From Escherichia coli (GTDB taxonomy: Bacteria > Pseudomonadota > Gammaproteobacteria > Enterobacterales > Enterobacteriaceae), in the NCBI RefSeq assembly GCF_003790525.1, contig NZ_CP033632.1: a stretch of 64,000 bases of DNA; one strand, written 5' to 3'. The translations under genes were made by a program, and so were the position numbers. Of this stretch, positions 17,379 to 35,521 are shown one piece after another; the first letter of the stretch is position 1; every line of letters begins with the position of its first letter. The notes under the pieces were generated by a model, which saw nothing but the letters and a program-made list of their open reading frames with translations, was not told where the DNA came from and searched no databases.

Positions 17379-19084
17379 ATATGACGATGGCTGCTAAAGA
17401 GCTGCTGGAGTCACAAGGGCTGAAGGTCACGGCGCTGGCCCCCTATGGGACACAGAAAAAAGCGCTTGAAGATGATGGATTACCGGCCCGCACCGTTGCC
17501 GCTTTCCTCAAAGCGAAGGATAAAAAGCTGGATGAAAAATCAGTCGTATTCATTGATGAAGCCGGGGTTATACCCGCCCGACAGATGAAACAGCTGATGG
17601 AGGTAATCGAGAAGCATAACGCTCGCGCGGTATTCCTGGGGGATACGTCACAGACGAAAGCGGTAGAAGCCGGTAAGCCTTTTGAGCAGCTGATTAAAGC
17701 AGGTATGCAGACCAGCTACATGAAAGACATTCAGCGACAGAAGAATGAAGTTTTGCTTGAGGCGGTTAAGTATGCCGCTGAAGGTAATGCCGCGCGCGCC
17801 CTGAAAAATATCACCGGCGTGAACGAACTGAAGGAAGAAGCGCCCCGACTCGCTCAACTTGCCGATCGCTACCTGTCTCTGTCCTCAGAACAACAGGATG
17901 CCACCCTGATAATCTCTGGTACGAACGCCTCACGCAAAACCCTCAATGACTACATCCGGGGCAATCTGGGGCTTGCCGGAACCGGCGAAACGTTCACGCT
18001 ACTTGACCGCGTGGATTCGACACAGGCGGAACGCCGCGACAGCCGTTATTTCAGTAAAGGGCAAATCATTATCCCCGAACAGGATTACAAAAATGGTATG
18101 AAGCGGGGCGAGTCTTACCAGGTTCTTGATACCGGGCCGGGCAACAAATTGACGGTTGAAAGCATCAGCGGTGAGCAGATCGCTTTCAGCCCGCGTACAC
18201 ACACCAAGCTGTCTGTATACCAGGCAGTCAGCGCCGAACTGGCGCCGGGCGATAAGGTTATGGTAACGCGTAACGATAAAACGCTGGACGTTGCCAACGG
18301 CGACCGCTTCACGGTGAAAACCGTGGAGGGTGAAAAACTGACGCTTGAGGACAAAAAAGGGCGCACGGTTGAGCTGGATAAAAAACAGGCTTCTTATCTT
18401 TCCTATGCTTATGCAACCACCGTCCACAAATCCCAGGGGCTTACCTGTGATCGCGTGTTGTTCAACATAGATACCAAATCGCTTACCACTTCTAAGGACG
18501 TTTTTTATGTTGGTATTTCGCGTGCGCGTCATGAGGTGGAAATTTTTACCGACGATAAAAAATCTTTGGCATCGAGCGTGAGCCGCGACAGCCCGAAAAC
18601 CACGGCCGCAGAAATTGACCGTTTCTTTGGACTTGAGGCCAGGTTTAAGGATATTGGCCGCGATACCAGTTTAGAAACCCGATCAGCTGAAAAAGGTCTG
18701 CCAGAAGCCACGGGGGAAAGCATGGCGTTTAACCAGAAACCCGATGAACATAACATGACAACCGGCACTGATTATCAGCCGGTGAGCAACGCAGAGGACG
18801 CCTTTCATCTTAAGCAGAACCCTATGGATGATTCCGTTGGCCTGCGGCGTCATGAAGCACAGCAAAATGATGCAGAGCTGGCCCATGATTATGCTGCTGC
18901 CGACGATCAGCAGTGGAGCGCGCAGGAGTATGCCGATTACGAGCATTATGCCGAAGCATCCGACTACGACTTTGACAGCAGCATTTACGACGATTACGCC
19001 ATGCCGCAGACGTCTCAGGCGGAACAGAGCCATACCGGAAAAGAACACACCCATGAGCATGAAGAAGGGGGCCATGAAATCTGA
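17379..19084 (+). pseudogene. traI: Conjugative relaxase/helicase (TraI-like) C-terminal fragment; 5' part removed by IS26
   Basis: Reading frame starts at the IS26 boundary; helicase-like body with an acidic C-terminal tail. Confidence 0.7.
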
Positions 19085-19710
19085 TGGAGCAGATCGACAA
19101 GCGCAAGCAGGATAAACTGAAGTTCGACCGGGTAATTAATCTGGCGCACAGACTGCCGCAACCGGCGATCCATGACTTACTACGCGCGCTGATACTGCCA
19201 ATTCAGGCCGATTACTTGCTGGCCGTTGGCACGGAGGGCCAGGACGCGCGCCCGGACATGAACGAGCGCGAGTTCTTCTTCACAAAAATCATCTGGGCGA
19301 TGGATTACACGCACATGAAATCACTCAGGCTTGCAGCTGAAGATTTTCCCCTGGCGCTTGCGACGGCCAAGATCCTGCCGTGGCCGTGGGGTGAATCAAG
19401 CTACCGGAGTGCTTTAGCCGATATAGGCAGCGCTAAGGGCAATCCGTGGGTACAGGATATTAACCACCGCGTTACTTTGTGGTTGCCCTGGCGGATAGGC
19501 TTTGTACGAGGAGGGAACCATTCTATTGCCAGCGGCGTTCTGGCCGGTGAGGGTGAGGTAATACCCGATACGGTTTATGATATGCGGTATTTGCTCGATA
19601 TTGTCAGCACTGACGGGTATTACTGGTACATGAGCGGGAAGATCTGCGAGAGAGTCAGTGACTACCGTACAGCCGCCTTTTTTGAAATAGGCCGCCTGCT
19701 TACACTGTGA
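19084..19710 (+). CDS. Hypothetical protein, 208 aa, coupled to the relaxase gene
   Basis: ATGA stop/start overlap with the upstream gene; no recognised domain. Confidence 0.5.
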   Translation: MEQIDKRKQDKLKFDRVINLAHRLPQPAIHDLLRALILPIQADYLLAVGTEGQDARPDMNEREFFFTKIIWAMDYTHMKSLRLAAEDFPLALATAKILPWPWGESSYRSALADIGSAKGNPWVQDINHRVTLWLPWRIGFVRGGNHSIASGVLAGEGEVIPDTVYDMRYLLDIVSTDGYYWYMSGKICERVSDYRTAAFFEIGRLLTL

Positions 19711-19753
19711 TTCCTTCAAAATATCTCAACGAAATTTCCCGACACCTGTTTAA

Positions 19754-19774
19754 GGGGGAACCGCAGAATTCGGA
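19754..19774. repeat. 21-bp remnant of a Tn21/Tn501-family terminal inverted repeat
   Basis: gggggaaccgcagaattcgga matches the first 21 bp of the 38-bp IR; compare the complete IR at 49753..49790. Confidence 0.6.
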
Positions 19775-20172
19775 TTTCATATAACCTATTTTTGTTGTTC
19801 AAGTTTGATTCCTTGGACTCTTCAGAATACAGACAGCAAATAAAGACCTTTCGTTTGAAGTATGTATTTCTTGCAGCAAAAATAATCAAAACCGCAAGAT
19901 ATGTAATCATGAAGTTGTCGGAAAACTATCCGTACAAGGGAGTGTATGAAAAATGTCTGGTATAATAAGAATATCATCAATAAAATTGAGTGTTGCTCTG
20001 TGGATAACTTGCAGAGTTTATTAAGTATCATTGCAGCAAAGATGAAATCAATGATTTATCAAAAATGATTGAAAGGTGGTTGTAAATAATGTTACAATGT
20101 GTGAGAAGCAGTCTAAATTCTTCGTGAAATAGTGATTTTTGAAGCTAATAAAAAACACACGTGGAATTTAGG
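19775..20172 (+). mobile_element. ISEcp1: ISEcp1 3' remnant with IRR and outward promoter; left boundary approximate
   Basis: Sequence ...tgttgctctgtggataacttgcagag...ttgaaa...tacaat...acacacgtggaatttagg recalled as the ISEcp1 right end; a 42-bp spacer follows. Confidence 0.8.
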
Positions 20173-20196
20173 GAATACTGATGTAACACGGATTGA

Positions 20197-21090
<894 letters not shown>

Positions 21091-21092
21091 CT

Positions 21093-22149
21093 GGTTTTGT
21101 TGAATAAATCGAACTTTTGCTGAGTTGAAGGATCAGATCACGTATCTTCCCGACAACGCAGACCGTTCCGTGGCAAAGCAAAAGTTCAAAATCACCAACT
21201 GGCCCACCTACAATAAAGCCCTCATCAACCGTGGCTCCATAACTTTCTGGCTGGATGATGAAGCTATTCAGGCCTGGTATGAGTCAGCAACACCTTCTTC
21301 ACGAGGCAGACCTCAGCGCTATTCTGACCTTGCCATCACGACTGTGCTGGTCATTAAACGCGTATTCAGGCTGACCCTGCGCGCTGCGCAGGGCTTTATT
21401 GATTCCATTTTTTCTCTGATGAACGTTCCGCTACGCTGCCCGGATTACAGCTGTGTCAGCAGGCGGGCAAAGTCGGTTAATATCAGTTTCAAAACGCCCA
21501 CCCGGGGTGAAATCGCACACCTGGTAATTGATTCCACCGGGCTGAAGGTCTTCGGTGAAGGCGAGTGGAAAGTCAAAAAGCATGGCCAGGAACGCCGTCG
21601 TATATGGCGTAAGCTGCATCTGGCAGTTGACAGTAAAACACATGAAATCATCTGCGCTGACCTGTCGCTGAACAACGTTACGGACTCAGAGGCCTTCCCC
21701 GGGTTAATCCGGCAAACCCACCGGAAAATCAGGTCAGCCGCCGCCGATGGAGCTTACGATACCCGGCTCTGTCACGATGAACTGCGGCGTAAGAAAATCA
21801 GCGCGCTTATCCCGCCCCGAAAAGGTGCGGGTTACTGGCCCGGTGAATATGCAGACCGTAACCGTGCAGTGGCTAATCAGCGAATGACCGGGAGTAATGC
21901 GCGGTGGAAATGGACAACAGATTACAACCGTCGCTCGATAGCGGAAACGGCGATGTACCGGGTAAAACAGCTGTTCGGGGGTTCACTGACGCTGCGTGAC
22001 TACGATGGTCAGGTTGCGGAGGCTATGGCCCTGGTACGAGCGCTGAACAAAATGACGAAAGCAGGTATGCCTGAAAGCGTGCGTATTGCCTGAAAACACA
22101 ACCCGCTACGGGGGAGACTTACCCGAAATCTGATTTATTCAACAAAGCC
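21093..22149 (+). mobile_element. IS903: IS903 (1057 bp, 18-bp IRs)
   Basis: IRs ggttttgttgaataaatc at 21093 and gatttattcaacaaagcc at 22132..22149. Confidence 0.9.
21170..22093 (+). CDS. IS903 transposase (GTG start)
   Basis: ORF 21125..22093 translation is IS5-family. Confidence 0.88.
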   Translation: MAKQKFKITNWPTYNKALINRGSITFWLDDEAIQAWYESATPSSRGRPQRYSDLAITTVLVIKRVFRLTLRAAQGFIDSIFSLMNVPLRCPDYSCVSRRAKSVNISFKTPTRGEIAHLVIDSTGLKVFGEGEWKVKKHGQERRRIWRKLHLAVDSKTHEIICADLSLNNVTDSEAFPGLIRQTHRKIRSAAADGAYDTRLCHDELRRKKISALIPPRKGAGYWPGEYADRNRAVANQRMTGSNARWKWTTDYNRRSIAETAMYRVKQLFGGSLTLRDYDGQVAEAMALVRALNKMTKAGMPESVRIA

Positions 22150-23247
22150 ACGCGCTGGACACACCACGATGACAGCGGTTTTATCCCTTACGCCATCACC
22201 ACCGGCCTTGATTACGAGGCGATGACCGAACAGCGCAAAGGCTATGAGAACTTTGTTTATCAGAACGGCGTTTACGATCTCGGCACCAAAGGTGATATGC
22301 GACGTAACGAACGTAACCTGATGTGGAACCTCGATCCCTACATTCAAACGCACTGGCAGCTCACCTCAGCCCTGGGGCTGGACGCCGGGGCGCGCTATAG
22401 CTCGGTATGGTTTGATTCCAACGATCGTTATGTTGTAGGTAAAAATGGTGATGATAGCGGCGAAGCGAGCTATCACAAGTGGCTTCCGGCGGCAGCGCTG
22501 AAGTATGCCATGACGCCGCAGTGGAACGTTTACCTCTCTGCCGGGAGGGGATTTGAAACGCCGACCATTAACGAGCTGTCCTATCGTCCCGATGGTCAGT
22601 CCGGGCTTAACTTTGCTCTGCAACCGGCCACTAACACCACCGTTGAAGCAGGCAGTAAATGGCAGGTGGGCACCGGGATGGCGAGCCTGAGCGTCTTCAA
22701 TACGGACACGAAAAATGAAATTGTCGTTGCCGCCAGCGACAATGGCCGTACGTCCTATCAGAACGCGGGCAAGACGCGCCGCCGCGGGGTCGAACTGGGA
22801 TGGGATCAGCAATTTGCGCCCGCCTGGCGCGCCAAACTGGCGTGGACGCTGCTGGATGCGACCTACCGTGAAAACGCCGGCGATGCTATTCAGAGCGGCA
22901 ATCGGATCCCGGGGATTGCACGTAATAGCGCCTATGCCTCCTTTGGCTGGGTGCCGGAAGAGGGATGGTACGCTGGCGCTGAAGTCCGCTATATGAGCGA
23001 TATTCAGGTCAACGATGCCAATAGCGAGCAGGCTCCAGCCTATACGGTGACGGCACTGAATACCGGCTATAAATATGTGCTAGATAACTGGACCGTCGAC
23101 CTCTATACGCGCGTTGATAACCTGTTTGATAAGCGCTACGTCGGCTCTGTTATCGTCAACGAGAGCAACGGACGCTATTATGAACCGGCGCCGGGCCGTA
23201 ACTATGGCGTTGGGCTATCGGTCAGCTATCAGTTTGATTCGCTGTAA
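22150..23247 (+). pseudogene. iroN: TonB-dependent siderophore receptor (IroN-like) C-terminal fragment
   Basis: Beta-barrel C-terminus ending ...YGVGLSVSYQFDSL; starts at the IS903 boundary. Confidence 0.75.
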
Positions 23248-23791
23248 CAATACGGCTGCCGGAGAGTGCTATTGAGGTGAGGCTCCGGCAGCGGGTAAAG
23301 GCGTTGATTCCTGGTAACAATAAGCTGCTTATTGATGTATCAGTAAGCATGCCGGCAGCCATTGCGCTTGATATAATACTACCCCATATGAGCAAGAGTA
23401 TTTTCACGGAAAAGCTAGCAGCCAATTTCGGCCTCGCGGCCTTCCCGCTTCTCAATTGAGCATATAATTTTTCCGCAGCCAAAACCTGCTCAGGTTCAGG
23501 CTTGGTCCTTACAGACTGGTATTCAACAATCGAACCATTCTTAGCTATTGGCGTTACATAAGCACTTACCCAATAGTGGTCGCCATTTTTACAGCGATTT
23601 TTTACTAGCCCCATCCATGAGCGGCCAGATTTTAATGTACTCCACATATGCTCAAATGCAGCAGGCGGCATATCTGGGTGTCTTACGATGTTGTGAGGCT
23701 GGCCTAATAGTTCTTCCTCAGTGAAACCACTGATTTTAATGAAGTCAGGATTAACGTACGTGATATGGCTTTGAGGGGAGGTAGTCGAAAG
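23222..23791 (-). pseudogene. PAS-domain sensor (Aer-like) fragment, 5' end removed by IS26
   Basis: PAS-like segment PAAFEHMWSTLKSGRSWMGLVKNRCKNGDHYWV; coding frame continues up to the IS26 boundary. Confidence 0.55.
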
Positions 23792-24611
23792 GGCACTGTT
23801 GCAAAGTTAGCGATGAGGCAGCCTTTTGTCTTATTCAAAGGCCTTACATTTCAAAAACTCTGCTTACCAGGCGCATTTCGCCCAGGGGATCACCATAATA
23901 AAATGCTGAGGCCTGGCCTTTGCGTAGTGCACGCATCACCTCAATACCTTTGATGGTGGCGTAAGCCGTCTTCATGGATTTAAATCCCAGCGTGGCGCCG
24001 ATTATCCGTTTCAGTTTGCCATGATCGCATTCAATCACGTTGTTCCGGTACTTAATCTGTCGGTGTTCAACGTCAGACGGGCACCGGCCTTCGCGTTTGA
24101 GCAGAGCAAGCGCGCGACCATAGGCGGGCGCTTTATCCGTGTTGATGAATCGCGGGATCTGCCACTTCTTCACGTTGTTGAGGATTTTACCCAGAAACCG
24201 GTATGCAGCTTTGCTGTTACGACGGGAGGAGAGATAAAAATCGACAGTGCGGCCCCGGCTGTCGACGGCCCGGTACAGATACGCCCAGCGGCCATTGACC
24301 TTCACGTAGGTTTCATCCATGTGCCACGGGCAAAGATCGGAAGGGTTACGCCAGTACCAGCGCAGCCGTTTTTCCATTTCAGGCGCATAACGCTGAACCC
24401 AGCGGTAAATCGTGGAGTGATCGACATTCACTCCGCGTTCAGCCAGCATCTCCTGCAGCTCACGGTAACTGATGCCGTATTTGCAGTACCAGCGTACGGC
24501 CCACAGAATGATGTCACGCTGAAAATGCCGGCCTTTGAATGGGTTCATGTGCAGCTCCATCAGCAAAAGGGGATGATAAGTTTATCACCACCGACTATTT
24601 GCAACAGTGCC
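23792..24611 (-). mobile_element. IS26: IS26 copy 5 (Gly184 allele)
   Basis: 820 bp with terminal IRs. Confidence 0.97.
23844..24566 (-). CDS. tnp26: IS26 transposase Tnp26, Gly184 allele
   Basis: ORF translation. Confidence 0.95.
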   Translation of the reverse strand: MLMELHMNPFKGRHFQRDIILWAVRWYCKYGISYRELQEMLAERGVNVDHSTIYRWVQRYAPEMEKRLRWYWRNPSDLCPWHMDETYVKVNGRWAYLYRAVDSRGRTVDFYLSSRRNSKAAYRFLGKILNNVKKWQIPRFINTDKAPAYGRALALLKREGRCPSDVEHRQIKYRNNVIECDHGKLKRIIGATLGFKSMKTAYATIKGIEVMRALRKGQASAFYYGDPLGEMRLVSRVFEM

Positions 24612-24933
24612 GTAATTATTTAGGATATAGCTCTGTGATTTAGTCTTTTTAGGGCGTTTATTTATGTCTTTATGCTGTAATGTCGGTGCTGATTTGGTCT
24701 TCAATAAGGCGATTTTTAGCCCGCTTTTTCCGGGGGGATGAAATGTTATTGGATTGCTAAATGATTTCAAAAAAGGGGTAACATAGAGCGGGGATTAGTG
24801 TGGCGAGGCGCAGGTTTCCGATGGCAGGCTAAACGCAAAAAATGCGCTTTTTAGCCGGTGATGAGGTGAGGCCGGGAGGGGATGCGTCGCCGATCACAGT
24901 TTACAACAGGGTTTGATAACGGGAGGAAAAGTC

Positions 24934-25350
24934 ATGCTGCAGGGATTGAATCATCTGACGCTGGCGGTCAGCGATCTGGCGTCAAGCCTGGCATTTTATC
25001 AGCAGTTACCTGGAATGCGCCTGCACGCCAGCTGGGATAGCGGAGCCTATCTCTCCTGTGGGGCGCTGTGGCTGTGCTTGTCGCTGGATGAGCAGCGGCG
25101 TAAAACGCCCCCTCAGGAAAGCGACTATACCCACTACGCCTTCAGCGTGGCGGAAGAAGAGTTTGCCGGGGTGGTGGCTCTGCTGGCGCAGGCGGGGGCT
25201 GAGGTATGGAAAGATAACCGCAGTGAAGGGGCGTCTTACTATTTTCTCGACCCTGACGGCCATAAGCTGGAGCTGCATGTGGGGAATCTGGCGCAGCGGC
25301 TGGCCGCCTGTCGCGAACGCCCCTACAAGGGGATGGTCTTTTTTGATTGA
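24934..25350 (+). CDS. fosA3: Fosfomycin glutathione transferase FosA3, 138 aa
   Basis: Translation from [40 protein letters not shown]... matches FosA3. Confidence 0.9.
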
Positions 25351-25354
25351 CGGG

Positions 25355-25873
25355 TTAGTTCAGCTTACTGCCGGATTTCAACGTGCAGATCCACAGCGGT
25401 GAATTGATAGAGCTGAGCAAGATAGCCTTTTCGTTGAGCTTCTGAGCGTTGAGAAACAGCCCGTCGTGGCTGTCGGACATCTCGCGCATAAAGTAGTCGA
25501 AAATCACGTTCGGCGATTCATCAATCGAGGAGGCGCTCGATTCCCACTGATTGATGCGGTAATGACGCTCGGTGGCCGAGATGCGTTTGCTGCTGTAGGT
25601 AAACTTCACGTAGCGTTGCAGGTAGAGCCAGCCGGCGGCGGAGTCGGTGTAACCTTCGACCACCATCGAGCCTTTACCCTGCGCGCCAAAATTGAAGTGA
25701 ATATTGCCGTTAACGTTCTCTTTGTCCATGTTCTCAAAGCGCATGATGCCCTTAGTGGAACAGCTCATGACACCCGCGTTGTCGGCAGGCAGCAGCCGCC
25801 AGGCGCTAAACGCGGCGGCGGCAATAAATACCAGAACGCAGAGGGCAAAGAACGGACGCGGCGCGAGTCTCAT
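25355..25873 (-). CDS. Hypothetical membrane-anchored protein (orf1 of the fosA3 module)
   Basis: N-terminal hydrophobic segment; position in the usual fosA3 module. Confidence 0.6.
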   Translation of the reverse strand: MRLAPRPFFALCVLVFIAAAAFSAWRLLPADNAGVMSCSTKGIMRFENMDKENVNGNIHFNFGAQGKGSMVVEGYTDSAAGWLYLQRYVKFTYSSKRISATERHYRINQWESSASSIDESPNVIFDYFMREMSDSHDGLFLNAQKLNEKAILLSSINSPLWICTLKSGSKLN

Positions 25874-26661
25874 TACGGCTTCCAGGAGTAGTAAAAGTAG
25901 TTATCGCAATAGCTGAACGGGTTATCTTCATGCATGGCGCAGTGGGCAAGGAACACGCGCCCCAGCCCGTTGGTTTCGAGCCGATCGCCGTAGAAGAAAA
26001 GAAAACGTTCACCGGGTTTACAGGCAATATTCAGCCGCTGGCGTACCTCATCGAAGTTTTTGCCGTAGGACTCTTCACTGACCGAACGTCGCATTTCATC
26101 GCTGGCCAGCAGTTCGCACTGGCTATGGCTGAGGCGGGTCAGCGCGATAGGCTGGGATTCACTGATGCCGACCAGACTGAAGGCAACCAGAAGCAGGGCA
26201 ATGGTGAGCAAGCAGGCTCCGGCCATGTACCAGCACATCCCGCGAGCATGTGCGGAGCGCGGTGCGTCTGGCGTTGTCGTAACGGGCGGCGGTTCGGCAG
26301 GCGTCTGTTGTGGTGAAACCGGCGGCGCGTCGTCCAGCGCTTCGATAATGACCTCGGGATTAAGCTGCAAATAGCCGCGCGAGACGGTGACGATGATGTT
26401 ATCGACGCCGTAATGGCGAAAGGTCTTCCGCAGCATGCTGAGATACTGATTCAGATTGCTGTTGGATGAGGTTAATCCATTGTCATCCCAGACTTTTTTC
26501 AGAACATCTTCCCGGCTGACAATCTCGGTATGGCGCAGAAAATAGTTAAACAGGGCGCTGGCGGTGAGGGATAGCTGGCTGTCCGGTTCATCGCTTTGCG
26601 GCAGCGTCAGGGTTCCGTCGGTGGCGTCGTAGATAAAACGGGCATTGATGTTGTAGCGCAT
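25873..26661 (-). CDS. CadC/ToxR-like membrane-anchored winged-helix regulator (orf2)
   Basis: OmpR/PhoB-type DNA-binding N-terminus, proline-rich linker, one transmembrane segment. Confidence 0.6.
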   Translation of the reverse strand: MRYNINARFIYDATDGTLTLPQSDEPDSQLSLTASALFNYFLRHTEIVSREDVLKKVWDDNGLTSSNSNLNQYLSMLRKTFRHYGVDNIIVTVSRGYLQLNPEVIIEALDDAPPVSPQQTPAEPPPVTTTPDAPRSAHARGMCWYMAGACLLTIALLLVAFSLVGISESQPIALTRLSHSQCELLASDEMRRSVSEESYGKNFDEVRQRLNIACKPGERFLFFYGDRLETNGLGRVFLAHCAMHEDNPFSYCDNYFYYSWKP

Positions 26662-26680
26662 CGCGGCCTCAGTCTGTGCT

Positions 26681-27108
26681 TCACGCGGGAAGCGTCATTT
26701 TATTCAGGGAGTCAACCAGCGCGCGACGGTGGTCGGCGCTCATGGTGATCCCTTCCGTCAACTCCGAAAGCCAGATGCCGTCAGCGGCGTAGCGCACCAG
26801 CGTGCCGGTTGGGCTGTTATCCAGCTCATCGCCCTGCGCCAGTTTCTCCAGCATCCAGTCGCGCCAGCATTTGCGCAGCACCGGTTCATCGGGCATTGCC
26901 AGCGACAAAACCATAAGCTGGCGGCTTTCATGGGTGTCCGTGAGATCCGCCAGATAGTTCAGATAGGCGCGGGTAAACCGGCCATAGCTCACGCCATCCT
27001 GTTGCATCAGCGCGGTAATCGCTTCTTCCATGATTGCCAGCAGACGCGCGAACAGGGCGAATATTAGCGCCTGCTTGTTCGGGAAATGGTGGATAAGGCC
27101 GCCTTTAC
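26681..27108 (-). pseudogene. TetR-family regulator C-terminal fragment (orf3), 5' end removed by IS26
   Basis: TetR-like ligand-domain sequence; frame runs into the IS26 end. Confidence 0.6.
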
Positions 27109-27928
27109 GGCACTGTTGCAAAGTTAGCGATGAGGCAGCCTTTTGTCTTATTCAAAGGCCTTACATTTCAAAAACTCTGCTTACCAGGCGCATTTCGCCC
27201 AGGGGATCACCATAATAAAATGCTGAGGCCTGGCCTTTGCGTAGTGCACGCATCACCTCAATACCTTTGATGGTGGCGTAAGCCGTCTTCATGGATTTAA
27301 ATCCCAGCGTGGCGCCGATTATCCGTTTCAGTTTGCCATGATCGCATTCAATCACGTTGTTCCGGTACTTAATCTGTCGGTGTTCAACGTCAGACGGGCA
27401 CCGGCCTTCGCGTTTGAGCAGAGCAAGCGCGCGACCATAGGCGGGCGCTTTATCCGTGTTGATGAATCGCGGGATCTGCCACTTCTTCACGTTGTTGAGG
27501 ATTTTACCCAGAAACCGGTATGCAGCTTTGCTGTTACGACGGGAGGAGAGATAAAAATCGACAGTGCGGCCCCGGCTGTCGACGGCCCGGTACAGATACG
27601 CCCAGCGGCCATTGACCTTCACGTAGGTTTCATCCATGTGCCACGGGCAAAGATCGGAAGGGTTACGCCAGTACCAGCGCAGCCGTTTTTCCATTTCAGG
27701 CGCATAACGCTGAACCCAGCGGTAAATCGTGGAGTGATCGACATTCACTCCGCGTTCAGCCAGCATCTCCTGCAGCTCACGGTAACTGATGCCGTATTTG
27801 CAGTACCAGCGTACGGCCCACAGAATGATGTCACGCTGAAAATGCCGGCCTTTGAATGGGTTCATGTGCAGCTCCATCAGCAAAAGGGGATGATAAGTTT
27901 ATCACCACCGACTATTTGCAACAGTGCC
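27109..27928 (-). mobile_element. IS26: IS26 copy 6 (Gly184 allele)
   Basis: 820 bp with terminal IRs. Confidence 0.97.
27161..27883 (-). CDS. tnp26: IS26 transposase Tnp26, Gly184 allele
   Basis: ORF translation. Confidence 0.95.
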   Translation of the reverse strand: MLMELHMNPFKGRHFQRDIILWAVRWYCKYGISYRELQEMLAERGVNVDHSTIYRWVQRYAPEMEKRLRWYWRNPSDLCPWHMDETYVKVNGRWAYLYRAVDSRGRTVDFYLSSRRNSKAAYRFLGKILNNVKKWQIPRFINTDKAPAYGRALALLKREGRCPSDVEHRQIKYRNNVIECDHGKLKRIIGATLGFKSMKTAYATIKGIEVMRALRKGQASAFYYGDPLGEMRLVSRVFEM

Positions 27929-28400
27929 GGCTATCGCTGCTGCTGAGGCTGCAATTGACGACTATAGAGGCGATGCTTGCGATGGATGGAGCGAAGAGGT
28001 CGAAAGCATTTGCTGGGGGGTAATTATTCAGCAGGCAACCAAGGTCGGTGAACGCAAGAAGAGGAAATGCGACAGAGTATCACCATGGATTGAAAGAGTT
28101 TGTGATTATGAGCTTCGACCTAATGTCGAAATCCCAGCCACCGATGCTTTCCTGTCTGAAATTCGTGCGGAAGCACGCAACGAGGGGATTAACTATACCG
28201 CCAGCCGTCTTGCTGCTGCGTTCAATCACGGATTTATCAATAAGTCTTTGCGTGAAGTTTTCGACGTTACACGCATGATTTTGTCAGCGAAAGAAGAGTT
28301 GGCTAATGAAGCGCATCCGATTGATGGCCTGTCTGGTGAATATGCGGAGAAATCCCTTGAAGAATGGGCGGAACAAATTCGCAAAGGAAGCAGCCAGTGA
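27929..28400 (+). CDS. Hypothetical phage protein; 5' end probably removed by IS26
   Basis: Frame opens at the IS26 boundary; shares the PATDAFL-E-RA segment with the gene at 28684. Confidence 0.5.
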
Positions 28401-28687
28401 ATATCGACACGACAATAACGATCGATACGCTCCTAAATACCGGTCTGGCACTTCTCGGTTGGCTTTACATCATGTCCCGCACATGGCGATGGCTGGGTTC
28501 CATTTTCCTAAAACAGTGGAAAAAACGGCGCAAACAGGAACTACGCCAGAAGGCATTAGAAGCGTTCTATGACGCATTTGAGCTTAGCCGCATTGAACCA
28601 GGTACAACAGCCAGGATAGCGACAAAAGGCGACCTGATGATAGTGATGTTCCGACAGGAGAGAGCAGAGAAAGGGGAATCAGCATGA
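28397..28687 (+). CDS. Small membrane protein (GTG start)
   Basis: GTGA overlap with the upstream stop; one hydrophobic segment. Confidence 0.45.
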   Translation: MNIDTTITIDTLLNTGLALLGWLYIMSRTWRWLGSIFLKQWKKRRKQELRQKALEAFYDAFELSRIEPGTTARIATKGDLMIVMFRQERAEKGESA

Positions 28688-29418
28688 AATTTTCCAAATT
28701 TTCTGAGTTGGTGAATCGTATTTTGTCCAACAACCACAGCCATCGTCGCGATATGGATGTAACAATCGTTGTTCATTCGCCTGGCAGCATTGGTTCAACA
28801 CCTTCAGTTGAGGTTCAGTCAATTCACGCTGGTTTTGATTGGGATTCCGGGAAAGTGCTTATTTTCCCATCACAGCCACTGACCACGCTAACACCAGAAC
28901 AGATTACTGATATCACTGATAGTGTGCGCAAAGGTCAGTCTTGGCACGCATATCAGGAATACAAGAAGCATCAAGAGCAGTTGGAAAAATTGTCGATTGA
29001 ACTGGATGCCGCAAAACAGCGCATTGCAGAGCTGGAGGGTAATCGCACGGCGCTGGCAGTGGAGAATGAGCTGGCTCGTAAGGCAGTTCAGGCATTCTGC
29101 GATGTTGTTGGCGACAACACCGAGGTTATCGCTGAGGTGGTTGGGCGAGATGGCGTTCTGGTTATTTTGGAGGCCATGAAGGCAACAGGAAATATGCCAG
29201 CCACCGATGCTTTCCTGGCTGAAGTGCGGGCGCAGGGCGTGGATGCTGCTATAGAAGCTGCAAAAAATCTGGTGGCCCAAGAATATGAGTATAAGGATTT
29301 CAAAGCGGCGCAGAGTGATTGCTGTATGCACCCTGGTTCAGACCTGGTAGGGAAGGTTGAAATGACTGAGTGGTTAGTTGACTTTGCTGCCCAGCTTCGC
29401 AAAGGAGGCAACCAGTGA
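28684..29418 (+). CDS. Hypothetical phage protein, coiled-coil, 244 aa
   Basis: ATGA overlap; paralogous C-terminal region to 27929..28400. Confidence 0.55.
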   Translation: MKFSKFSELVNRILSNNHSHRRDMDVTIVVHSPGSIGSTPSVEVQSIHAGFDWDSGKVLIFPSQPLTTLTPEQITDITDSVRKGQSWHAYQEYKKHQEQLEKLSIELDAAKQRIAELEGNRTALAVENELARKAVQAFCDVVGDNTEVIAEVVGRDGVLVILEAMKATGNMPATDAFLAEVRAQGVDAAIEAAKNLVAQEYEYKDFKAAQSDCCMHPGSDLVGKVEMTEWLVDFAAQLRKGGNQ

Positions 29419-29933
29419 GCGAAATTAATTACCAGGCACTGCGTGAGGCGGCGGAACGTGCAATTCCAGCAATGGAACGCCTGTTAATGTTGCCAGCTGA
29501 TGATGATTTGTTAAGTGAACAGGAACTTAAAGATTACGGTGTGGATATTGATGCGCTCAACGCCTTCAAATTTCTGGCCGGACCAGAAACCGTGCTGGCA
29601 CTACTGGATGAACGGGAAAGGAACCAGCAATACATCAAACGCCGCGACCAGGAGAACGAGGATATTGCGCTAACGGTAGGGAAGCTGCGCGTTGAGCTTG
29701 AAGCAGCAAAATCAAAACTCAACGAGCAGCGTGAATATTACGAGGGAGTAATCGCGGATGGAAGTAAGCGCATAGCAGAACTGGAGGAGCGGGAAATACT
29801 GCTCCCGGAACGTAGCAGCATGCTTCATCGAACAGATTTTCACGATGATTACCAAACGGTAATGGCATACAAAGTTTCTGAAGTCATCGCTGCAATCCGC
29901 GCCGCAGGCATTCGCATCAAAGGAGGTGAGTAA
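29415..29933 (+). CDS. Hypothetical coiled-coil protein, 172 aa
   Basis: GTGA overlap with the upstream gene. Confidence 0.55.
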   Translation: MSEINYQALREAAERAIPAMERLLMLPADDDLLSEQELKDYGVDIDALNAFKFLAGPETVLALLDERERNQQYIKRRDQENEDIALTVGKLRVELEAAKSKLNEQREYYEGVIADGSKRIAELEEREILLPERSSMLHRTDFHDDYQTVMAYKVSEVIAAIRAAGIRIKGGE

Positions 29934-30109
29934 TGCGTGTGGCATGTATCGGCTTGTTACCGTACCCGACTCGTTTTTGGGCTTCTGCGCTAATTGCAAA
30001 GCCGTATGTCCTGATGGCTGACAACATCATCCCGGCACCAAAGCGCCGCCATACCGGTATTGCAGCGGCACGACGAGCAGCAAAGAGACGCAGGAGAGCA
30101 AAGCGATGA
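29933..30109 (+). CDS. Small basic protein, 58 aa (below the ORF-track threshold)
   Basis: Manual translation [58 protein letters not shown]; overlaps neighbours at both ends. Confidence 0.4.
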   Translation: MRVACIGLLPYPTRFWASALIAKPYVLMADNIIPAPKRRHTGIAAARRAAKRRRRAKR

Positions 30110-30282
30110 AAAACCGTAAGGCAAAACGACTTTTTTTACAGCGACCTGTGCGTGTGGTGGAGCTGGTTATTAGCAACCATAAGATAGCGGTACTCCATCC
30201 ATTTGGTCAGGTGGCTTTTGCCGCAAAGCGTAAGCCTACTGCGTCACAGAACAGGCGGAAGAAAGGGTACGCAGTAAGATGA
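30106..30282 (+). CDS. Small basic protein, 58 aa, starting MKNRKAK
   Basis: Manual translation; ATGA overlap with the next gene; paralog of 30279..30467. Confidence 0.4.
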   Translation: MKNRKAKRLFLQRPVRVVELVISNHKIAVLHPFGQVAFAAKRKPTASQNRRKKGYAVR

Positions 30283-30467
30283 AAAACCGTAAAGCAAAGA
30301 TTCTGTTAGTTCGTAGAAACGCTCCTGGCGTCTGGCAGTGGGTGAGACTCAGCAACCGACGGATGGGGTTGATGAAATATTACGGGATGATGGATTGTGG
30401 TTTTTGCAAAAAGCCCAGCGCGGCGCAAAACCGCTGGAAAAACCATTTGCGCACTAAAGGAGAGTGA
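30279..30467 (+). CDS. Small basic protein, 62 aa, starting MKNRKAK
   Basis: ORF-track entry; tandem paralog of the preceding gene. Confidence 0.45.
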   Translation: MKNRKAKILLVRRNAPGVWQWVRLSNRRMGLMKYYGMMDCGFCKKPSAAQNRWKNHLRTKGE

Positions 30468-30468
30468 T

Positions 30469-30984
30469 ATGGCGTTAACACACCGCGAACTCTGTCAGAT
30501 TGCGTACAAGTTCCTTAAGCGCAACGGGTTCAAGGTTTGTTTTCATGACCGCTTTATAGCTGTAACCAGTACCGGAGAACAGCCAGATGCTATGGGGTTC
30601 AGAAATTCAGCATCATGCCTGATAGAGGCGAAGTGTTCTCGTGCTGATTTGTTGGCAGATAGAAAAAAGCGTTTTCGTAAAAATCCGTCTCTTGGAATGG
30701 GCGACTGGCGATTCTTTATTAGTGAGCCGGGAATTATTTCAATTGAGGATTTACCACCTGGCTGGGGATTACTTCACGTTGTTAACGGAAGAGTACGGAA
30801 AGTACATGGGTGGCCCAAGGGTAATTGCTGTTGGGGTAACCCTGAAGATAAACCTTTTATTGGGAATAAGCAGGTTGAATGCGATTACATGTTATCTGCA
30901 TTAAGGCGCATGGAGTTGAGAGGGCACCTTAATGAAATATATGACGGTGTAATTGTTAATAAGAAAGAAGGAAACGCGGCATGA
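30469..30984 (+). CDS. PD-(D/E)xK-type nuclease-like protein (about 171 aa from MALTHRELCQ)
   Basis: Motif ...EQPDAMGF...CLIEAKCS... (PD, then E-x-K); AAGGAG Shine-Dalgarno 9 bp upstream. Confidence 0.5.
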   Translation: MALTHRELCQIAYKFLKRNGFKVCFHDRFIAVTSTGEQPDAMGFRNSASCLIEAKCSRADLLADRKKRFRKNPSLGMGDWRFFISEPGIISIEDLPPGWGLLHVVNGRVRKVHGWPKGNCCWGNPEDKPFIGNKQVECDYMLSALRRMELRGHLNEIYDGVIVNKKEGNAA

Positions 30985-31838
30985 TCACTATTACCAAAGA
31001 GCGACTGCTGACAATCAAGCAGTGGCGCGAAACATACGGACCTGATAGCAACGTTGTACTGCCAGCAGAAGAAGCGGAAGAACTGGCGCGTATCGTGCTG
31101 GCATCGCTGGAAGCAGAGCCTGTTCTGTATCAGTCCTGCACTCGCCCCACCTGGAATAGCGGTGTTCCGTGGACGGAATGGAAAGAACGTAGTCGTGAGT
31201 GCTACGAAGACGATTTGCGTTTTACAGACACGCCTGACCATGCCGGTTGGATATACAAATGTCGAAAACTATATACCACTCCGCCAGCGCCGATAGCGTT
31301 AGAGGCCATTGAAAACGCAATTGAATACATTCGTAGTATCGCTTTTCACATCGATGAAGACGATTACCACGGCAAACATATTGCGTATTTCATGCGACAA
31401 GCATTGGCCTGGCTGGAAGGGCATTCATGCAGCGACGACAGACTGGGTAAAGCCGACAATCAACCAGTACGCGGCAACCAGGCTGCCGAATCCAATCGCG
31501 GTAATGAGTGGACCGGCAATCCTGATATTGATAACGCAATCATCATGCTCGACCGCATAGATACGGCGGAAAGTTACGATGATGACCGTATTGAGGCTGT
31601 TAAGGCTGTTTTGCGTAGACTGGCAGGCAACTCTCCGGTAACTCCGGATGGTTGGATAAGCTGTAGTGAGCGAATGCCCCCTCAAGATGATTGGATTTTA
31701 ATTTATTCAAAGCACGGCGAGTATATGGCAGGACAGGTACAAGGGGAATACGTGGAGTTGAGCGACGGCACTTTATCGTGGTTAGGGAACGCCTTGTTCT
31801 GGATGCCGCTACCAGAACCGCCGCAGGAGGCGAAATGA
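30981..31838 (+). CDS. Phage protein with a DUF551-like C-terminal domain, 285 aa
   Basis: C-terminal GWISCSERMPPQDDWILIY...LSWLGNALFWMPLPEPP resembles DUF551. Confidence 0.5.
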   Translation: MITITKERLLTIKQWRETYGPDSNVVLPAEEAEELARIVLASLEAEPVLYQSCTRPTWNSGVPWTEWKERSRECYEDDLRFTDTPDHAGWIYKCRKLYTTPPAPIALEAIENAIEYIRSIAFHIDEDDYHGKHIAYFMRQALAWLEGHSCSDDRLGKADNQPVRGNQAAESNRGNEWTGNPDIDNAIIMLDRIDTAESYDDDRIEAVKAVLRRLAGNSPVTPDGWISCSERMPPQDDWILIYSKHGEYMAGQVQGEYVELSDGTLSWLGNALFWMPLPEPPQEAK

Positions 31839-32095
31839 TGGATGTAAAAGAGAAGGTTTTGCAGGTGATGCGTTCCCGGGCTGCCCTGCAAGATAAAGCT
31901 CTCGGCGGGGAATATCCATTCAGGATGGCAACCTGGAATCTGCGGTTGGCAATGGAGAAGGAATTTCCTGATGAAGAATGGCGTTCGGCAGATTTGCGCA
32001 AAATTCTTATGGAGCTGGCTAAAGACGGAACAGTATCCAAAGATACCCATGCCAGCCGGATTGGTCAGGCGGTATGGAGACTGGAGGTGAGGTAA
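31835..32095 (+). CDS. Hypothetical protein, 86 aa
   Basis: ATGA coupling to the upstream gene. Confidence 0.45.
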   Translation: MMDVKEKVLQVMRSRAALQDKALGGEYPFRMATWNLRLAMEKEFPDEEWRSADLRKILMELAKDGTVSKDTHASRIGQAVWRLEVR

Positions 32096-32376
32096 TGGCT
32101 AACCTGCAACTTGCCGTTAAAGGTGAATACTTCGATGCCATGATTCGCGGGGAGAAAACGGAAGAGTATCGCCTGTGTAATGACTACTGGAATAAGCGCC
32201 TCGTTAACCGTAAGTATTACCGCCTGATTATCACAAAGGGATATCCGAAGCGCGAAGACTTCAGTCGCAGAATTGACGTCCCGTATAACGGATATGAAAT
32301 AAAAACAATCACACATCCACACTTCGGTGATAAACCGGTAAAGGTGTTCGCGATAAAAGTGAAGATTAATAGCTAA
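32095..32376 (+). CDS. ASCH/PUA-like small protein, 93 aa
   Basis: N-terminal KGEYFDAMIRGEKTEEYR motif typical of ASCH-type domains. Confidence 0.45.
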   Translation: MANLQLAVKGEYFDAMIRGEKTEEYRLCNDYWNKRLVNRKYYRLIITKGYPKREDFSRRIDVPYNGYEIKTITHPHFGDKPVKVFAIKVKINS

Positions 32377-32399
32377 ATTTCAATTAACACGGAGTAATT

Positions 32400-32693
32400 A
32401 TGTGGCGCGGTAATAATCATGGCGGAAGTCAGATGATACTTACCGAATATACGTTCGACCACAAAACCAATAAATCACGTTCAGTATATTTGCTTCGGCA
32501 CAATAGCCGCGTAAGAAATACCGTTCTGGAGCAAAATCTGACCGTTGAAATGGATAATTTGGGAAACTTCAAGCCAACAATATCGCTTGATGATTTTCCG
32601 TGTGGTTTAAGCGAAAGAGAAGCAATGCTGAAATTAGCAGAATGGCTACAAAGATTAAGCATTGCTATTGAAGATAACTGGTCTGAACCTTAA
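32400..32693 (+). CDS. Hypothetical protein, 97 aa
   Basis: ORF with GGAG Shine-Dalgarno. Confidence 0.45.
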   Translation: MWRGNNHGGSQMILTEYTFDHKTNKSRSVYLLRHNSRVRNTVLEQNLTVEMDNLGNFKPTISLDDFPCGLSEREAMLKLAEWLQRLSIAIEDNWSEP

Positions 32694-32699
32694 ATTAAT

Positions 32700-33074
32700 A
32701 TGATGACACTAAAACATTTTCTTGACCGCCCATTATGGGCGGCAGCCGCAGGCTATGACTTTAATTATATGGATTGCATGTCTTATACTGCCAATGCATA
32801 CGACCATTCGTTCAGCCTGCTGTTTAATTCTTTAAGAATATTGCCGGAAACAGAAGTTGGAGAGCTTCATTTATGGATATTGGGCTTTATCGCGGCTGGA
32901 GTTGGTATTGCCGTATGGCCTTTTATTTTCTGGCTGGTGGCTGTTGTAGTGTGGTTTAAGTGCAAGACGTACCGGAAAAAGTATTTCTTAGGTGATGGAA
33001 TGACTGATATTGCCAAAATGAACATTGAAAAATGGACTAAGGAATGTGAAAAGAAATGGCGCAAAAAGAAATGA
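32700..33074 (+). CDS. Membrane protein, 124 aa, basic C-terminus
   Basis: Hydrophobic stretch LWILGFIAAGVGIAVWPFIFWLVAVVVWF. Confidence 0.5.
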   Translation: MMTLKHFLDRPLWAAAAGYDFNYMDCMSYTANAYDHSFSLLFNSLRILPETEVGELHLWILGFIAAGVGIAVWPFIFWLVAVVVWFKCKTYRKKYFLGDGMTDIAKMNIEKWTKECEKKWRKKK

Positions 33075-33730
33075 CTACTCTAACGACAGCATACTTACAG
33101 CAATTGGTATTTTTTGCAGGCGAGGCTACTTGTCATCCTGACGCAAACTATTTATTGGAATTTGAGAGGTTAGCGTCACCCGGTATCGTTCTGGAACTGG
33201 CCCAACAGGTGCTGGCCTTGAGACAAAAAGAGCAACATGAAAGTAATACGTGTAGATTGAATTTTGAGCAGTGGCTGGAACAGCAACGCGGGAAAATCGA
33301 TGTGGACTGTGGTTGTGTGTCCACTGAAACATTCATGCACTGGCTGCGGGTAGCTTACGAGGCTGGCAACTATCCGGATATTCCGGATAGTTCGGTGCCA
33401 GCGCCAGGAAAGGGCGTCACCGGTGAACGTATCCGCATTAAGCCGCATGTTTATCGCGAACTGGTTAACCGTCTCCACGATACAGCGATCAAGTGTGCTG
33501 GCACTCAGCAATTACGAGAAAGAATTAGCCGTGTTTTGGGCGACGTTATTACGCCATATCATCATAAACAAGCCGAGAAAAGCGGTCTGGAAAGGTGTCA
33601 TCTTGAGGCAGCATTAAACATTAAGCCGGGGCATACGCTAGGCATTATTGATGCACTGTTGGTTCATAAGATGGCCAGGGCTTTATTGTCGTTGGTGGAC
33701 GCTGGTGATACAAGCGAGGGTGAAGTATGA
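33056..33730 (+). CDS. Hypothetical protein, 224 aa
   Basis: ORF overlapping the upstream gene. Confidence 0.5.
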   Translation: MAQKEMTTLTTAYLQQLVFFAGEATCHPDANYLLEFERLASPGIVLELAQQVLALRQKEQHESNTCRLNFEQWLEQQRGKIDVDCGCVSTETFMHWLRVAYEAGNYPDIPDSSVPAPGKGVTGERIRIKPHVYRELVNRLHDTAIKCAGTQQLRERISRVLGDVITPYHHKQAEKSGLERCHLEAALNIKPGHTLGIIDALLVHKMARALLSLVDAGDTSEGEV

Positions 33731-34089
33731 GAGTTGCAGATCACATCAAACACCTTGAAAGAATTATCGAAAACGGTGAACTCTTAAGAGATCAGATGAG
33801 ACGCACGGCAGAAGCCAGGGAGGCGATAATCCGCAGTCAGGCTGGTAAATTAAAGCAATTGTCAGAGATTAACACGCTATACAAGAACAGACGTAACCGG
33901 GCGGTGATGCGGCTTCAGAAAGCACGTAATGAAATTAAATTGGTGGAGGCAAAACTGAAAAAACAGATCCAGCGTTACGATCAGCAAGATGCTTTTTATG
34001 CCGCCATCAAGGCGGCTGCTAATGAAATAGGCATCTGGAAGTTGCTGGTGGAGAAAGCAAAGACGAAGTTAAATGCCAACGAAAGCTGA
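33727..34089 (+). CDS. Hypothetical coiled-coil protein, 120 aa; last gene of the + strand operon
   Basis: ATGA coupling to the upstream gene. Confidence 0.5.
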   Translation: MRVADHIKHLERIIENGELLRDQMRRTAEAREAIIRSQAGKLKQLSEINTLYKNRRNRAVMRLQKARNEIKLVEAKLKKQIQRYDQQDAFYAAIKAAANEIGIWKLLVEKAKTKLNANES

Positions 34090-34164
34090 ACTACAGGTGC
34101 CCACCAGCACATACAGAAAATGATTGTTTCCACATCAAGGAGATTTTAATGTTTCACTGAAACA

Positions 34165-34302
34165 TTAAGTAAGCCAGTGCATAATTCCATTTTTTACTGA
34201 CCTTAAAAGCAAAATCAAAACGATGATGAGGATAATAGCCAGAATCTGGCTAATAATAGGCGCATCTAAAAATGCACTCAGGAACTGAAAAAAAGCGTTC
34301 AT
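34165..34302 (-). CDS. Small hydrophobic peptide, 45 aa (possible membrane-active toxin or holin-like peptide)
   Basis: Manual translation MNAFFQFLSAFLDAPIISQILAIILIIVLILLLRSVKNGIMHWLT; below the ORF-track threshold. Confidence 0.3.
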   Translation of the reverse strand: MNAFFQFLSAFLDAPIISQILAIILIIVLILLLRSVKNGIMHWLT

Positions 34303-35164
34303 TCAGGTGGTTCCTTGTCAAATGTAAAGGTGCACTTGCTCACGTTGACGTAGAAACCCAACCCCTATATAGTTGGATTCGGTGAATGAAAGTCGTTAAC
34401 GTGAGCTTACGGCACATGTTTTCGGAAAAACATCAGGGAACGGCTAATTCCTTGATGCGGGTGGGGTCTGTAATGCAGACCCTATCTATTAACGTCATGA
34501 TTGCATCTCAAATTTTCTCCTTATCTTCAATTAATCTACATTCATTTCATCTGTTAGCCACCACAATATGTAGAAAATGGCCCTCTTGCAAGTGCATAAC
34601 TTTGTGGATAACTCAGGAAGGAAAAAGTGGCTTTCGCGCACCTTCGGTCAGACAAGGTGTCCGGGAAAGTCAACGCAAAGAAAAAAATTGTTAAAAATAA
34701 CGTTTGTTGGAATTGTATATTTTTATCCCCTTCAATGGTTAGCATTCTATTAACATCTTTTTTTAGAGACAGAAAAACATATCGTAACAACATATATACA
34801 GTGTTAAGCGGCGAGTATTATCCTGCGGTGGGAATTCTGGGCGCTGTTAGATTCGACTTTCTCAGCAGGATTACATCGTCAACTTGCGACGTTGCCGTAT
34901 GACTTTCGTGTAATAGGTGACAATGATGCGGCTAGTGAGTTACTTGTGAAGTTTTTCGGAAAAGGTTTTGTGGCCTCGGATCTTGATGAGCTACAGCAAC
35001 ATGAAGTGTCTAATTTGATTTTTAGCCATAGCCAATAAGCCTCCCTCCTCCATCAAGGCCACAATTTGTGACCTTAAACAATTTGTTTTCTGCTTTTTCT
35101 TATTTGAGAAAATAACGTTGTTGACAGCTAATAGGCTCGTTGTTGTTATACATGCCTGTATAGA

Positions 35165-35521
35165 TTATGACCGTAAATTATTAGCGGATTTTAAGCCATA
35201 TTCACCGTTGTAGAAATTACTCATGTTCCATTCATTAGGAAGTTCTTTTCTGTCCAATGTATAGTGGCGCACGATATAACGATCTTCATCTTCTTCGATG
35301 GACAGGCGGACATAGCCAATGTGAATCACCGATACGGGCGGTGTTCGTATTGCATAGATGTCGCGGAGATATACCGGCAGCTCGACAAATGCATCAGGTG
35401 CATCTGTGATGCTCGTTTTTTCACAGTATTCATATAACGCATCGTTGATATCGTTAAGAGATTCATGATCGTATATTTCCAGGTAATTACCGCGATCGCG
35501 ATGGTACTCGATTTTAGCCAT
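35165..35521 (-). CDS. Hypothetical protein, 118 aa (second gene of a two-gene operon)
   Basis: Start codon immediately follows the stop of the upstream gene. Confidence 0.55.
   Translation of the reverse strand: MAKIEYHRDRGNYLEIYDHESLNDINDALYEYCEKTSITDAPDAFVELPVYLRDIYAIRTPPVSVIHIGYVRLSIEEDEDRYIVRHYTLDRKELPNEWNMSNFYNGEYGLKSANNLRS

Follow-up and report, generated by a model that had tools for sequence, protein, structure and literature searches.

What are the three adjacent genes that a P1-like phage-plasmid carries at a map position where reference P1 has none, and what might they do? The question is raised by positions 30981 to 32376 of a 64,000-nucleotide stretch of Escherichia coli DNA (NCBI RefSeq assembly GCF_003790525.1, contig NZ_CP033632.1). 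The whole of this stretch, referred to here as the window, is that of a P1-like phage-plasmid. The three genes are real, ordinary and already annotated, and they had been read correctly in a preliminary description made from the DNA letters. They encode, in this order, an acidic protein that ends in a DUF551 domain, a small basic protein predicted to be a winged helix, and a minimal basic protein predicted to belong to the ASCH superfamily. The explanation that we favor, and that we consider probable as a whole, is that they are accessory genes of the lambdoid exo-xis type, coupled to one another in translation, and that they would tune physiology rather than build virions. The open reading frames (ORFs) and the features within them are the following (aa, amino acids; coordinates here and below are those of the window).

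30981..31838, + strand, modular acidic EaA-type gene, 285 aa (ORF list)
31835..32095, + strand, predicted stand-alone winged-helix gene, 86 aa, basic, phrog_2814 (ORF list)
32095..32376, + strand, predicted minimal ASCH-superfamily gene, 93 aa, basic, phrog_625 (ORF list)
31650..31826, + strand, DUF551 domain, aa 224-282 of the 285-aa protein (PF04448)
32149..32172, + strand, codons of the ASCH octapeptide, G19-E-K21-T-E-E24-Y-R26 (column conservation)
30981..30984, + strand, ATGA overlap of the stop of a 171-aa ORF and the start of the 285-aa gene (sequence)
31825-31830, + strand, Shine-Dalgarno AGGAGG for the 86-aa gene (sequence)
31835..31838, + strand, ATGA overlap of the stop of the 285-aa gene and the start of the 86-aa gene (sequence)
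32083-32092, + strand, Shine-Dalgarno GGAGGTGAGG for the 93-aa gene (sequence)
32093..32097, + strand, TAATG with the stop of the 86-aa gene and the start of the 93-aa gene (sequence)

The coordinates and sizes of the three + strand ORFs (285, 86 and 93 aa) are those given in the preliminary description, which had also proposed that all three are chained by ATGA overlaps. This holds for the junction between the 285-aa and 86-aa genes, where stop and start share 4 nucleotides (nt), but not for the junction between the 86-aa and 93-aa genes, which is a TAATG with an overlap of 1 nt. A Shine-Dalgarno-like sequence precedes all three starts (GAAGGAA, AGGAGG and GGAGGTGAGG, respectively), and the one belonging to the 86-aa gene lies within the coding end of DUF551. 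Full-length matches to PHROG families were obtained for all three proteins (phrog_60 at 4e-64 for the 285-aa, phrog_2814 at 9e-53 for the 86-aa and phrog_625 at 6e-48 for the 93-aa protein), and the exact 285-aa protein is carried by 681 contigs. Compared with its copy in Stx2 phage II, the 93-aa gene shows 6, 3 and 16 differences at first, second and third codon positions, which is the pattern expected for purifying selection in this frame. Together, the PHROG matches, the spread over contigs and the codon-position pattern strongly indicate that the three ORFs are genes and not chance frames. Antisense ORFs of 85-146 aa also exist; given that conservation of the proteins and the codon-position pattern alike speak for the + frame, we interpret these as shadow ORFs. 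The isoelectric points of the proteins are 4.6 (285 aa), 9.2 (86 aa) and 9.7 (93 aa), and none of them matched an NCBIfam family.

That the 285-aa protein ends in a DUF551 domain, as had been proposed, was confirmed by a profile search in which PF04448 passed the Pfam gathering cut-off (E = 2.5e-10; 41.5 bits vs a cut-off of 22; residues 224-282, profile positions 1-68 of 68). Moreover, a precomputed PF04448 match is present on all 120 homologues among the matches listed. The protein is built from three parts: an N-terminal module of ~50 aa, a rarer middle region and the C-terminal DUF551 domain. These parts match different PHROGs (phrog_60, phrog_3323 and phrog_924), and the tblastn matches are likewise module-wise. 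The N-terminal module is common to EaA/EaD proteins of P22-like and Stx phages, to whose starts it is 74-90% identical (tblastn). With the EaA/DUF551 proteins of these phages the 285-aa protein also shares the DUF551 tail and a setting among ea/exo-xis genes. It differs from them in its middle 140 aa, which are rare (common to 16 of the 76 DUF551 ORFs found upstream of ASCH-like genes in the sample described below), and in that its gene is located in a P1-like phage-plasmid and not in a lambdoid prophage. Other DUF551 relatives are E. coli CPS-53 YfdS and the V2 variant of Ea22. DUF551 is regarded as a portable domain of unknown function (PMC10834534; PMC4776307); variants of Ea22 are known that have it as an alternative C-terminal domain (PMC10834534), and YfdS has been found to affect oxidative-stress tolerance (PMC4776307). 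The 285-aa protein does not itself qualify as an Ead/Ea22 protein, since no match to the coiled-coil domain PF13935 was found in it. DUF551 is thus the one domain recognized in it, and a single-sequence search of the PDB with this protein gave no match.

Four short segments in or at the edges of these genes (30981-31124, 31622-31678, 31799-31830 and 32090-32134) are found again, at 92-100% identity, in hundreds of phages of the lambdoid, P22-like and Stx kinds. They are located at gene or domain boundaries and have unrelated sequence on either side: 30981-31124 is the beginning (~144 nt) of the DUF551 gene, 31622-31678 the linker that precedes DUF551, 31799-31830 the 3' end of DUF551 with the Shine-Dalgarno sequence of the following gene, and 32090-32134 the beginning (~40 nt) of the ASCH-like gene. 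These segments look like conserved exchange junctions of mosaic modules.

The 93-aa protein had been described as ASCH/PUA-like, a claim that stands at the level of fold and motif and falls short at the level of the Pfam profile. Thus, PF04266 scored 14.1 bits vs a cut-off of 21.2 (E = 0.082) and covered only residues 6-28. An exhaustive search of a library of representatives at 50% identity found 709 relatives at E <= 0.001; of 83 diverse homologues taken from it (42-76% identity), only five match ASCH and two match DUF3850 at E < 0.01. A family-profile search of PDB sequences reached the ASCH structure 3iuw at E = 0.3 only. The AlphaFold2 model of the protein is confident, with a predicted local distance difference test score (pLDDT) of 95.7 and a predicted template modeling score (pTM) of 0.84. 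It adopts a PUA-like beta-barrel that is closest to solved ASCH proteins: 13 of the 14 top Foldseek matches in the PDB are of the ASCH family, including 3iuw, PH0355, YqfB and ZmASCH. The protein also has the GxKxxExR motif, which is strongly conserved among the 83 homologues (G19 93%, K21 100%, E24 99%, R26 96%); W32, R35, Y50, H74 and F77 are further conserved residues of the family, the first four of them of a pocket type. Since fold and motif agree with ASCH while the Pfam score stays below threshold, we assign the 93-aa protein to the ASCH superfamily as a predicted, divergent member. It resembles the members from Enterococcus faecalis (3iuw), Pyrococcus horikoshii (PH0355) and Zymomonas mobilis (ZmASCH), as well as YqfB, in its barrel, its octapeptide and its being a small single domain. 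It differs from the solved proteins in sequence (12-19% identity), from classic ASCH in the additional near-invariant W32, Y50, H74 and F77 of its family, and from YqfB in having a Glu at the position of the nucleophile (Thr).

A single-sequence PDB search with the 93-aa protein also returned the GH43 beta-xylosidase 1y7b (E = 0.0018, 71 residues). We consider this match spurious, because it concerns a region of a large glycosidase that is unrelated to the predicted small barrel and because it was gone in the profile search. Ten of the ASCH-like homologues are longer, and no informative partner domain was found in them except for one Ead/Ea22 N-terminus. In that protein (P0122) the Ead/Ea22 N-terminus is in frame with the ASCH-like domain via the linker NRRRRLTV. 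The same linker joins the ASCH-like domain to a middle region like that of the DUF551 protein plus a CxxC zinc-ribbon-like segment in another homologue (P0121). Both may be either true fusions or read-through or recombinant gene calls.

The model of the 86-aa protein has a pLDDT of 95.2 and the topology H1-b1-H2-H3-b2-b3. The order of elements typical of a winged helix (H1-b1-H2-H3-b2-wing-b3) and strong structural matches were both found, and the protein is therefore confidently predicted to be a stand-alone winged helix. Neither Pfam nor NCBIfam contains a family for it, and its family profile recovered nothing from the PDB sequences. The stand-alone winged helices with which it was compared are Salmonella PefI, STIV F93, the DNA-binding domains of Fur and ArsR, and the winged helix of Cdc6/ORC; the 86-aa protein differs from its structural matches in sequence (7-22% identity) and in having no metal-binding or dimerization extension. 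Its family comprises ~131 clusters, of which those named by source are all from Enterobacteriaceae, and goes at NCBI by the name 'eaa protein'. A TPR-repeat match to this protein in a single-sequence PDB search (E = 7e-5) was rejected, being the sum of four insignificant repeat matches.

We then consider where these genes sit. The block that contains them is 100% identical to MH422554, MH445380 and MH445381 ('Punavirus P1', 'Escherichia phage P1') and 99.3% identical to phage RCS47. In RCS47 the proteins carry the RefSeq names 'DUF551 domain-containing protein', 'eaa protein' and 'ASCH domain-containing protein', assigned by the Prokaryotic Genome Annotation Pipeline (PGAP), and in many plasmids likewise. 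The finding is thus minor in itself, the genes being common and their public names the same as those of the preliminary description. New here are the winged-helix fold predicted for the 'eaa protein' family, the motif-level description of the ASCH-like protein, and the count of DUF551-ASCH synteny. The preliminary description had also looked to annotated P1 genes at the same map position, but comparison with NC_005856 revealed no such genes there: window positions 17001-33354 gave no blastn match to this reference P1, of which the 70-94.8 kb segment was compared. Identity to P1 resumes at 33355 with the 3' end of pmgT, followed by pmgU, pmgV, upfM-O and then lxr through c1. In the P1-like MH422554 and RCS47, the block lies between pap and a PmgT-like gene, after which come PmgV, hot or lxr, and humD. 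In the pmgT region of P1 itself, the C1 operator OpmgT (Op88) stands in front of pmgT, together with the pmgT promoters, and none of these was found upstream here. The 224-aa ORF at 33056-33730 (+ strand) is a chimera, its 3' part from 33355 being ~95% identical to P1 pmgT. Nothing in the compared P1 segment corresponds to its 5' part, and the replaced segment has its right-hand boundary in this ORF.

The block of ~5 kb at 28364-33350 consists of lambdoid 'ea'/exo-xis-type genes (DUF4752, Ead/Ea22, DUF551 and ASCH according to Pfam). Hence, some P1-like phage-plasmids carry an exo-xis block of ~5 kb instead of the 5' part of pmgT, and its absence from reference P1 shows that neither morphogenesis nor replication of P1 requires it. 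The block is like the exo-xis region of lambda and Stx phages (ea22, orf60a, orf61, orf63, ea8.5) in being early, non-essential, mosaic and made up mostly of small ORFs, and unlike it in that orf60a, orf61, orf63 and ea8.5 are not in the block of the window. A corresponding arrangement is found in the pL operon of Stx2 phage II, in which a DUF551 gene and an ASCH gene adjoin each other between ea22 and xis. Pieces of the block occur in ~500 phage records and 533 plasmid records, the latter mostly of 90-100 kb and non-mobilizable, and at least 80% of the block is present in only five of the phage records. That many records contain pieces and few contain at least 80% of the block argues that the locus is a mosaic hot spot. 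The block thus documents a pmgT mosaic hot spot in P1-like phage-plasmids, filled with lambdoid exo-xis genes. The pieces also occur singly. Among 357 phage records matching the winged-helix and ASCH DNA, most have the ASCH-like gene alone (including HK022, ST104, VT2-Sakai and Jersey-type Salmonella phages), and some have the winged-helix gene alone, as in Lys12581Vzw, where an anti-repressor is next to it.

Within the window the three genes form part of a longer unit.

28364..34089, + strand, chain of 14 same-strand ORFs enclosing the three genes (ORFs, junctions, Pfam)

The first half of the chain encodes a DUF4752 protein, a 244-aa protein, an Ead/Ea22-like protein, three small basic ORFs and the 171-aa ORF; the second half encodes the DUF551 protein, the winged helix, the ASCH-like protein, a 97-aa ORF, a 124-aa ORF, the PmgT-like chimera and PmgV. 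The ORFs overlap at nine of the 13 junctions (six times by 4 nt, twice by 1 nt and once by 19 nt), and the remaining four junctions are gaps, with sizes of 1, 6 and 23 nt. A promoter/terminator scan revealed no convincing internal + strand terminator in the chain, and sites were fewer than in shuffled sequence. RNA families of Rfam are absent from 27800-35200.

To analyze the order of the genes in relatives, we used 80 of at least 548 IMG/VR loci with close homologues of the ASCH-like protein, obtained from a 12-sequence alignment. A DUF551 domain ends just upstream of the ASCH-like gene in 76 of these 80 loci. The two are directly adjacent in 32 loci, have the winged-helix gene between them in 35, and are separated by other inserts of 280-613 nt in the rest; the winged-helix gene is therefore an optional cassette between DUF551 and ASCH. 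The upstream DUF551 proteins are diverse, with 67 distinct C-terminal strings and lengths of ~90 to 400 aa, and only 12 have the architecture of the 285-aa protein. The adjacency of DUF551 and ASCH is robust within enterobacterial phages, but lineage-bound. That the ASCH-like gene keeps its place downstream of DUF551 is a hint of a partnership between the two; the adjacency may reflect such a partnership, or merely a conserved junction for recombination and translational coupling. It could guide a first functional study of two very widespread phage domains. In Jerseyvirus SETP13 (locus L007, 2995-3476) the order is reversed: the ASCH-like gp51 comes first and is followed, with a 4-nt overlap, by gp52, a 69-aa protein consisting of DUF551 only.

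How the genes might work can be outlined as follows. The three genes would be expressed from a single long polycistronic message. Both basic proteins, the winged helix and the ASCH-like one, would bind nucleic acid, to judge from fold, charge and context. For the ASCH-like protein, whose class the preliminary description called RNA-binding, the indications are indirect, namely its isoelectric point of 9.7 and its conserved residues of a pocket type. By analogy with domains of the PUA clan (PMC11037411), we propose that its barrel may accommodate one base or nucleotide, perhaps a modified one, in a pocket formed by K21, E24, R26, Y50 and H74. The acidic DUF551 protein may act as an adaptor. Together or separately, the three proteins would modulate the physiology of host or phage, much as the lysis-lysogeny choice is tuned by other exo-xis genes, which are described in the literature as modulating lysogenization and induction.

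Several observations weigh against this explanation. As to expression, no convincing + strand promoter was found upstream of the operon (27929-28364), an operator search found no P1 C1 operator near its start, and an IS26 copy adjoins its upstream end at ~27929. As to the coherence of the unit, only nine of the 533 plasmids have at least 80% of the block, and only 66 of the 357 matching phage records have both the winged-helix and the ASCH-like gene. The 80 loci of the synteny sample are close relatives (86-100% identity) and hence not independent, and no DUF551 was found at seven loci of distant ASCH-like homologues (43-57% identity), which had no recurrent partner gene either. As to function, the structural matches of the winged helix include protein-binding folds (ESCRT-II, cullin) besides DNA-binding ones, and neither an experiment on nor a phenotype for the three proteins was found in the literature on DUF551, phage ASCH proteins and the exo-xis region; we infer every functional step from fold, charge and context.

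If the 93-aa protein were an amidohydrolase of the YqfB type, it would remove N4-acyl groups from cytidine (ac4C) and feed pyrimidine salvage while the phage grows. The catalytic residues of YqfB are Lys21, Thr24 (the nucleophile) and Glu74, plus Arg26 (PMC9599836). The 93-aa protein has Lys21 and Arg26, but 99% of its family have Glu at position 24, which is the canonical form of ASCH proteins other than YqfB, and the identity to YqfB is 12%. Because the nucleophile Thr24 is replaced by Glu, we regard this activity as unlikely. The adjacency and translational coupling of the genes in the window, and the order DUF551, winged helix, ASCH in 35 of the 80 related prophage loci, could also be explained by an obligate system of three components. 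Against this, the winged-helix gene is missing from most loci with the ASCH-like gene, with both small genes in only 66 of 357 phage records and DUF551 directly abutting ASCH in 32 of the 80 loci; moreover, the winged-helix gene occurs without ASCH (e.g., in Lys12581Vzw), and the families differ in size (~131 clusters, from Enterobacteriaceae where named, vs 709 ASCH-like relatives). As the genes assort independently, we judge an obligate three-part system to be quite improbable. In a further reading, DUF551 and ASCH would constitute a conserved two-part module of enterobacterial phages. The ASCH-like protein would read or shield a modified base in nucleic acid of the phage or the host, such as the N6-methyladenine (6mA) made by Dam or Dmt, with DUF551 tethering it to variable partner domains and the winged helix as an optional helper. 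The order would be DUF551-ASCH in lambdoid, P22-like and P1-like elements and ASCH-DUF551 in Jersey-type phages. If true, DUF551 and the ASCH proteins of phages would thereby gain their first function, which might be protection from modification-dependent restriction; we consider this reading very doubtful.

That the three genes occupy a hot spot of variation in a phage-plasmid is also compatible with their being defense or counter-defense cargo, for example free-standing readers of modified bases that would protect methylated phage DNA against type IV restriction. Type IV enzymes use PUA-like and winged-helix domains to sense modifications, and for ASCH a role as a 6mA reader has been predicted (PMC11037411; PMC4738411). 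In addition, the 86-aa and 93-aa proteins are both basic, and at one distant ASCH-like locus an N6/N4 methyltransferase is encoded three genes downstream. This linkage was seen at only one of the seven distant loci, however; none of the three proteins matched any PADLOC model at E <= 0.01, and no fusion to a nuclease or other effector was present among the 10 longer ASCH-like homologues. A role of this kind therefore seems to us a rather slim prospect. Finally, the location between pap and the PmgT-like gene in MH422554 and RCS47 might suggest that the genes provide P1 morphogenetic (pmg) functions as part of a pap-pmgT operon. Reference P1 is fully viable, yet its 70-94.8 kb segment has no similarity to 28364-33354, and the homologues are found in the early-left accessory region of Stx phages and in other accessory clusters of small genes, not among structural genes; a morphogenetic function is scarcely credible. 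We thus retain the explanation that the three are coupled exo-xis accessory genes.

Some further features of the chain were observed upstream of the three genes. The Ead_Ea22 domain (PF13935) is present in a separate ORF at 29415-29933 (6e-38). It is followed by three small basic ORFs of 58, 58 and 62 aa (29933-30467, + strand), which are linked by ATGA overlaps and for which no Pfam family was found; the second and third both begin with MKNRKAK, suggesting that they are tandem paralogues. Next comes the basic 171-aa ORF (30469-30984, + strand), which would be 195 aa long if it began at an alternative GTG at 30397. Its PHROG matches are phrog_9263 and phrog_631 (function unknown) and, weakly, a 'DNA repair protein' family, and it contains a PD...E-x-K-like motif (PDAMGF...LIEAKCS). 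No match to NCBIfam or to PDB sequences was found for it, nor to Pfam when the 195-aa form with the GTG start was searched. The ORF is missing from RCS47 and has no annotation in MH422554.

In the window the pmgT hot spot directly adjoins an IS26/blaCTX-M resistance module (20215-27929), which lies directly upstream of the accessory operon and contains the following features.

20215-21090, blaCTX-M, 291 aa (NCBIfam blaCTX-M, 617.8 bits)
21125-22093, IS5-family transposase
22222-23247, truncated TonB-dependent receptor
23844-24566 and 27161-27883, both - strand, tnp of two IS26 copies

Over the CTX-M segment, identity to the P1-like Salmonella phage SJ46 is 99.9%, and the annotation there is CTX-M-27.

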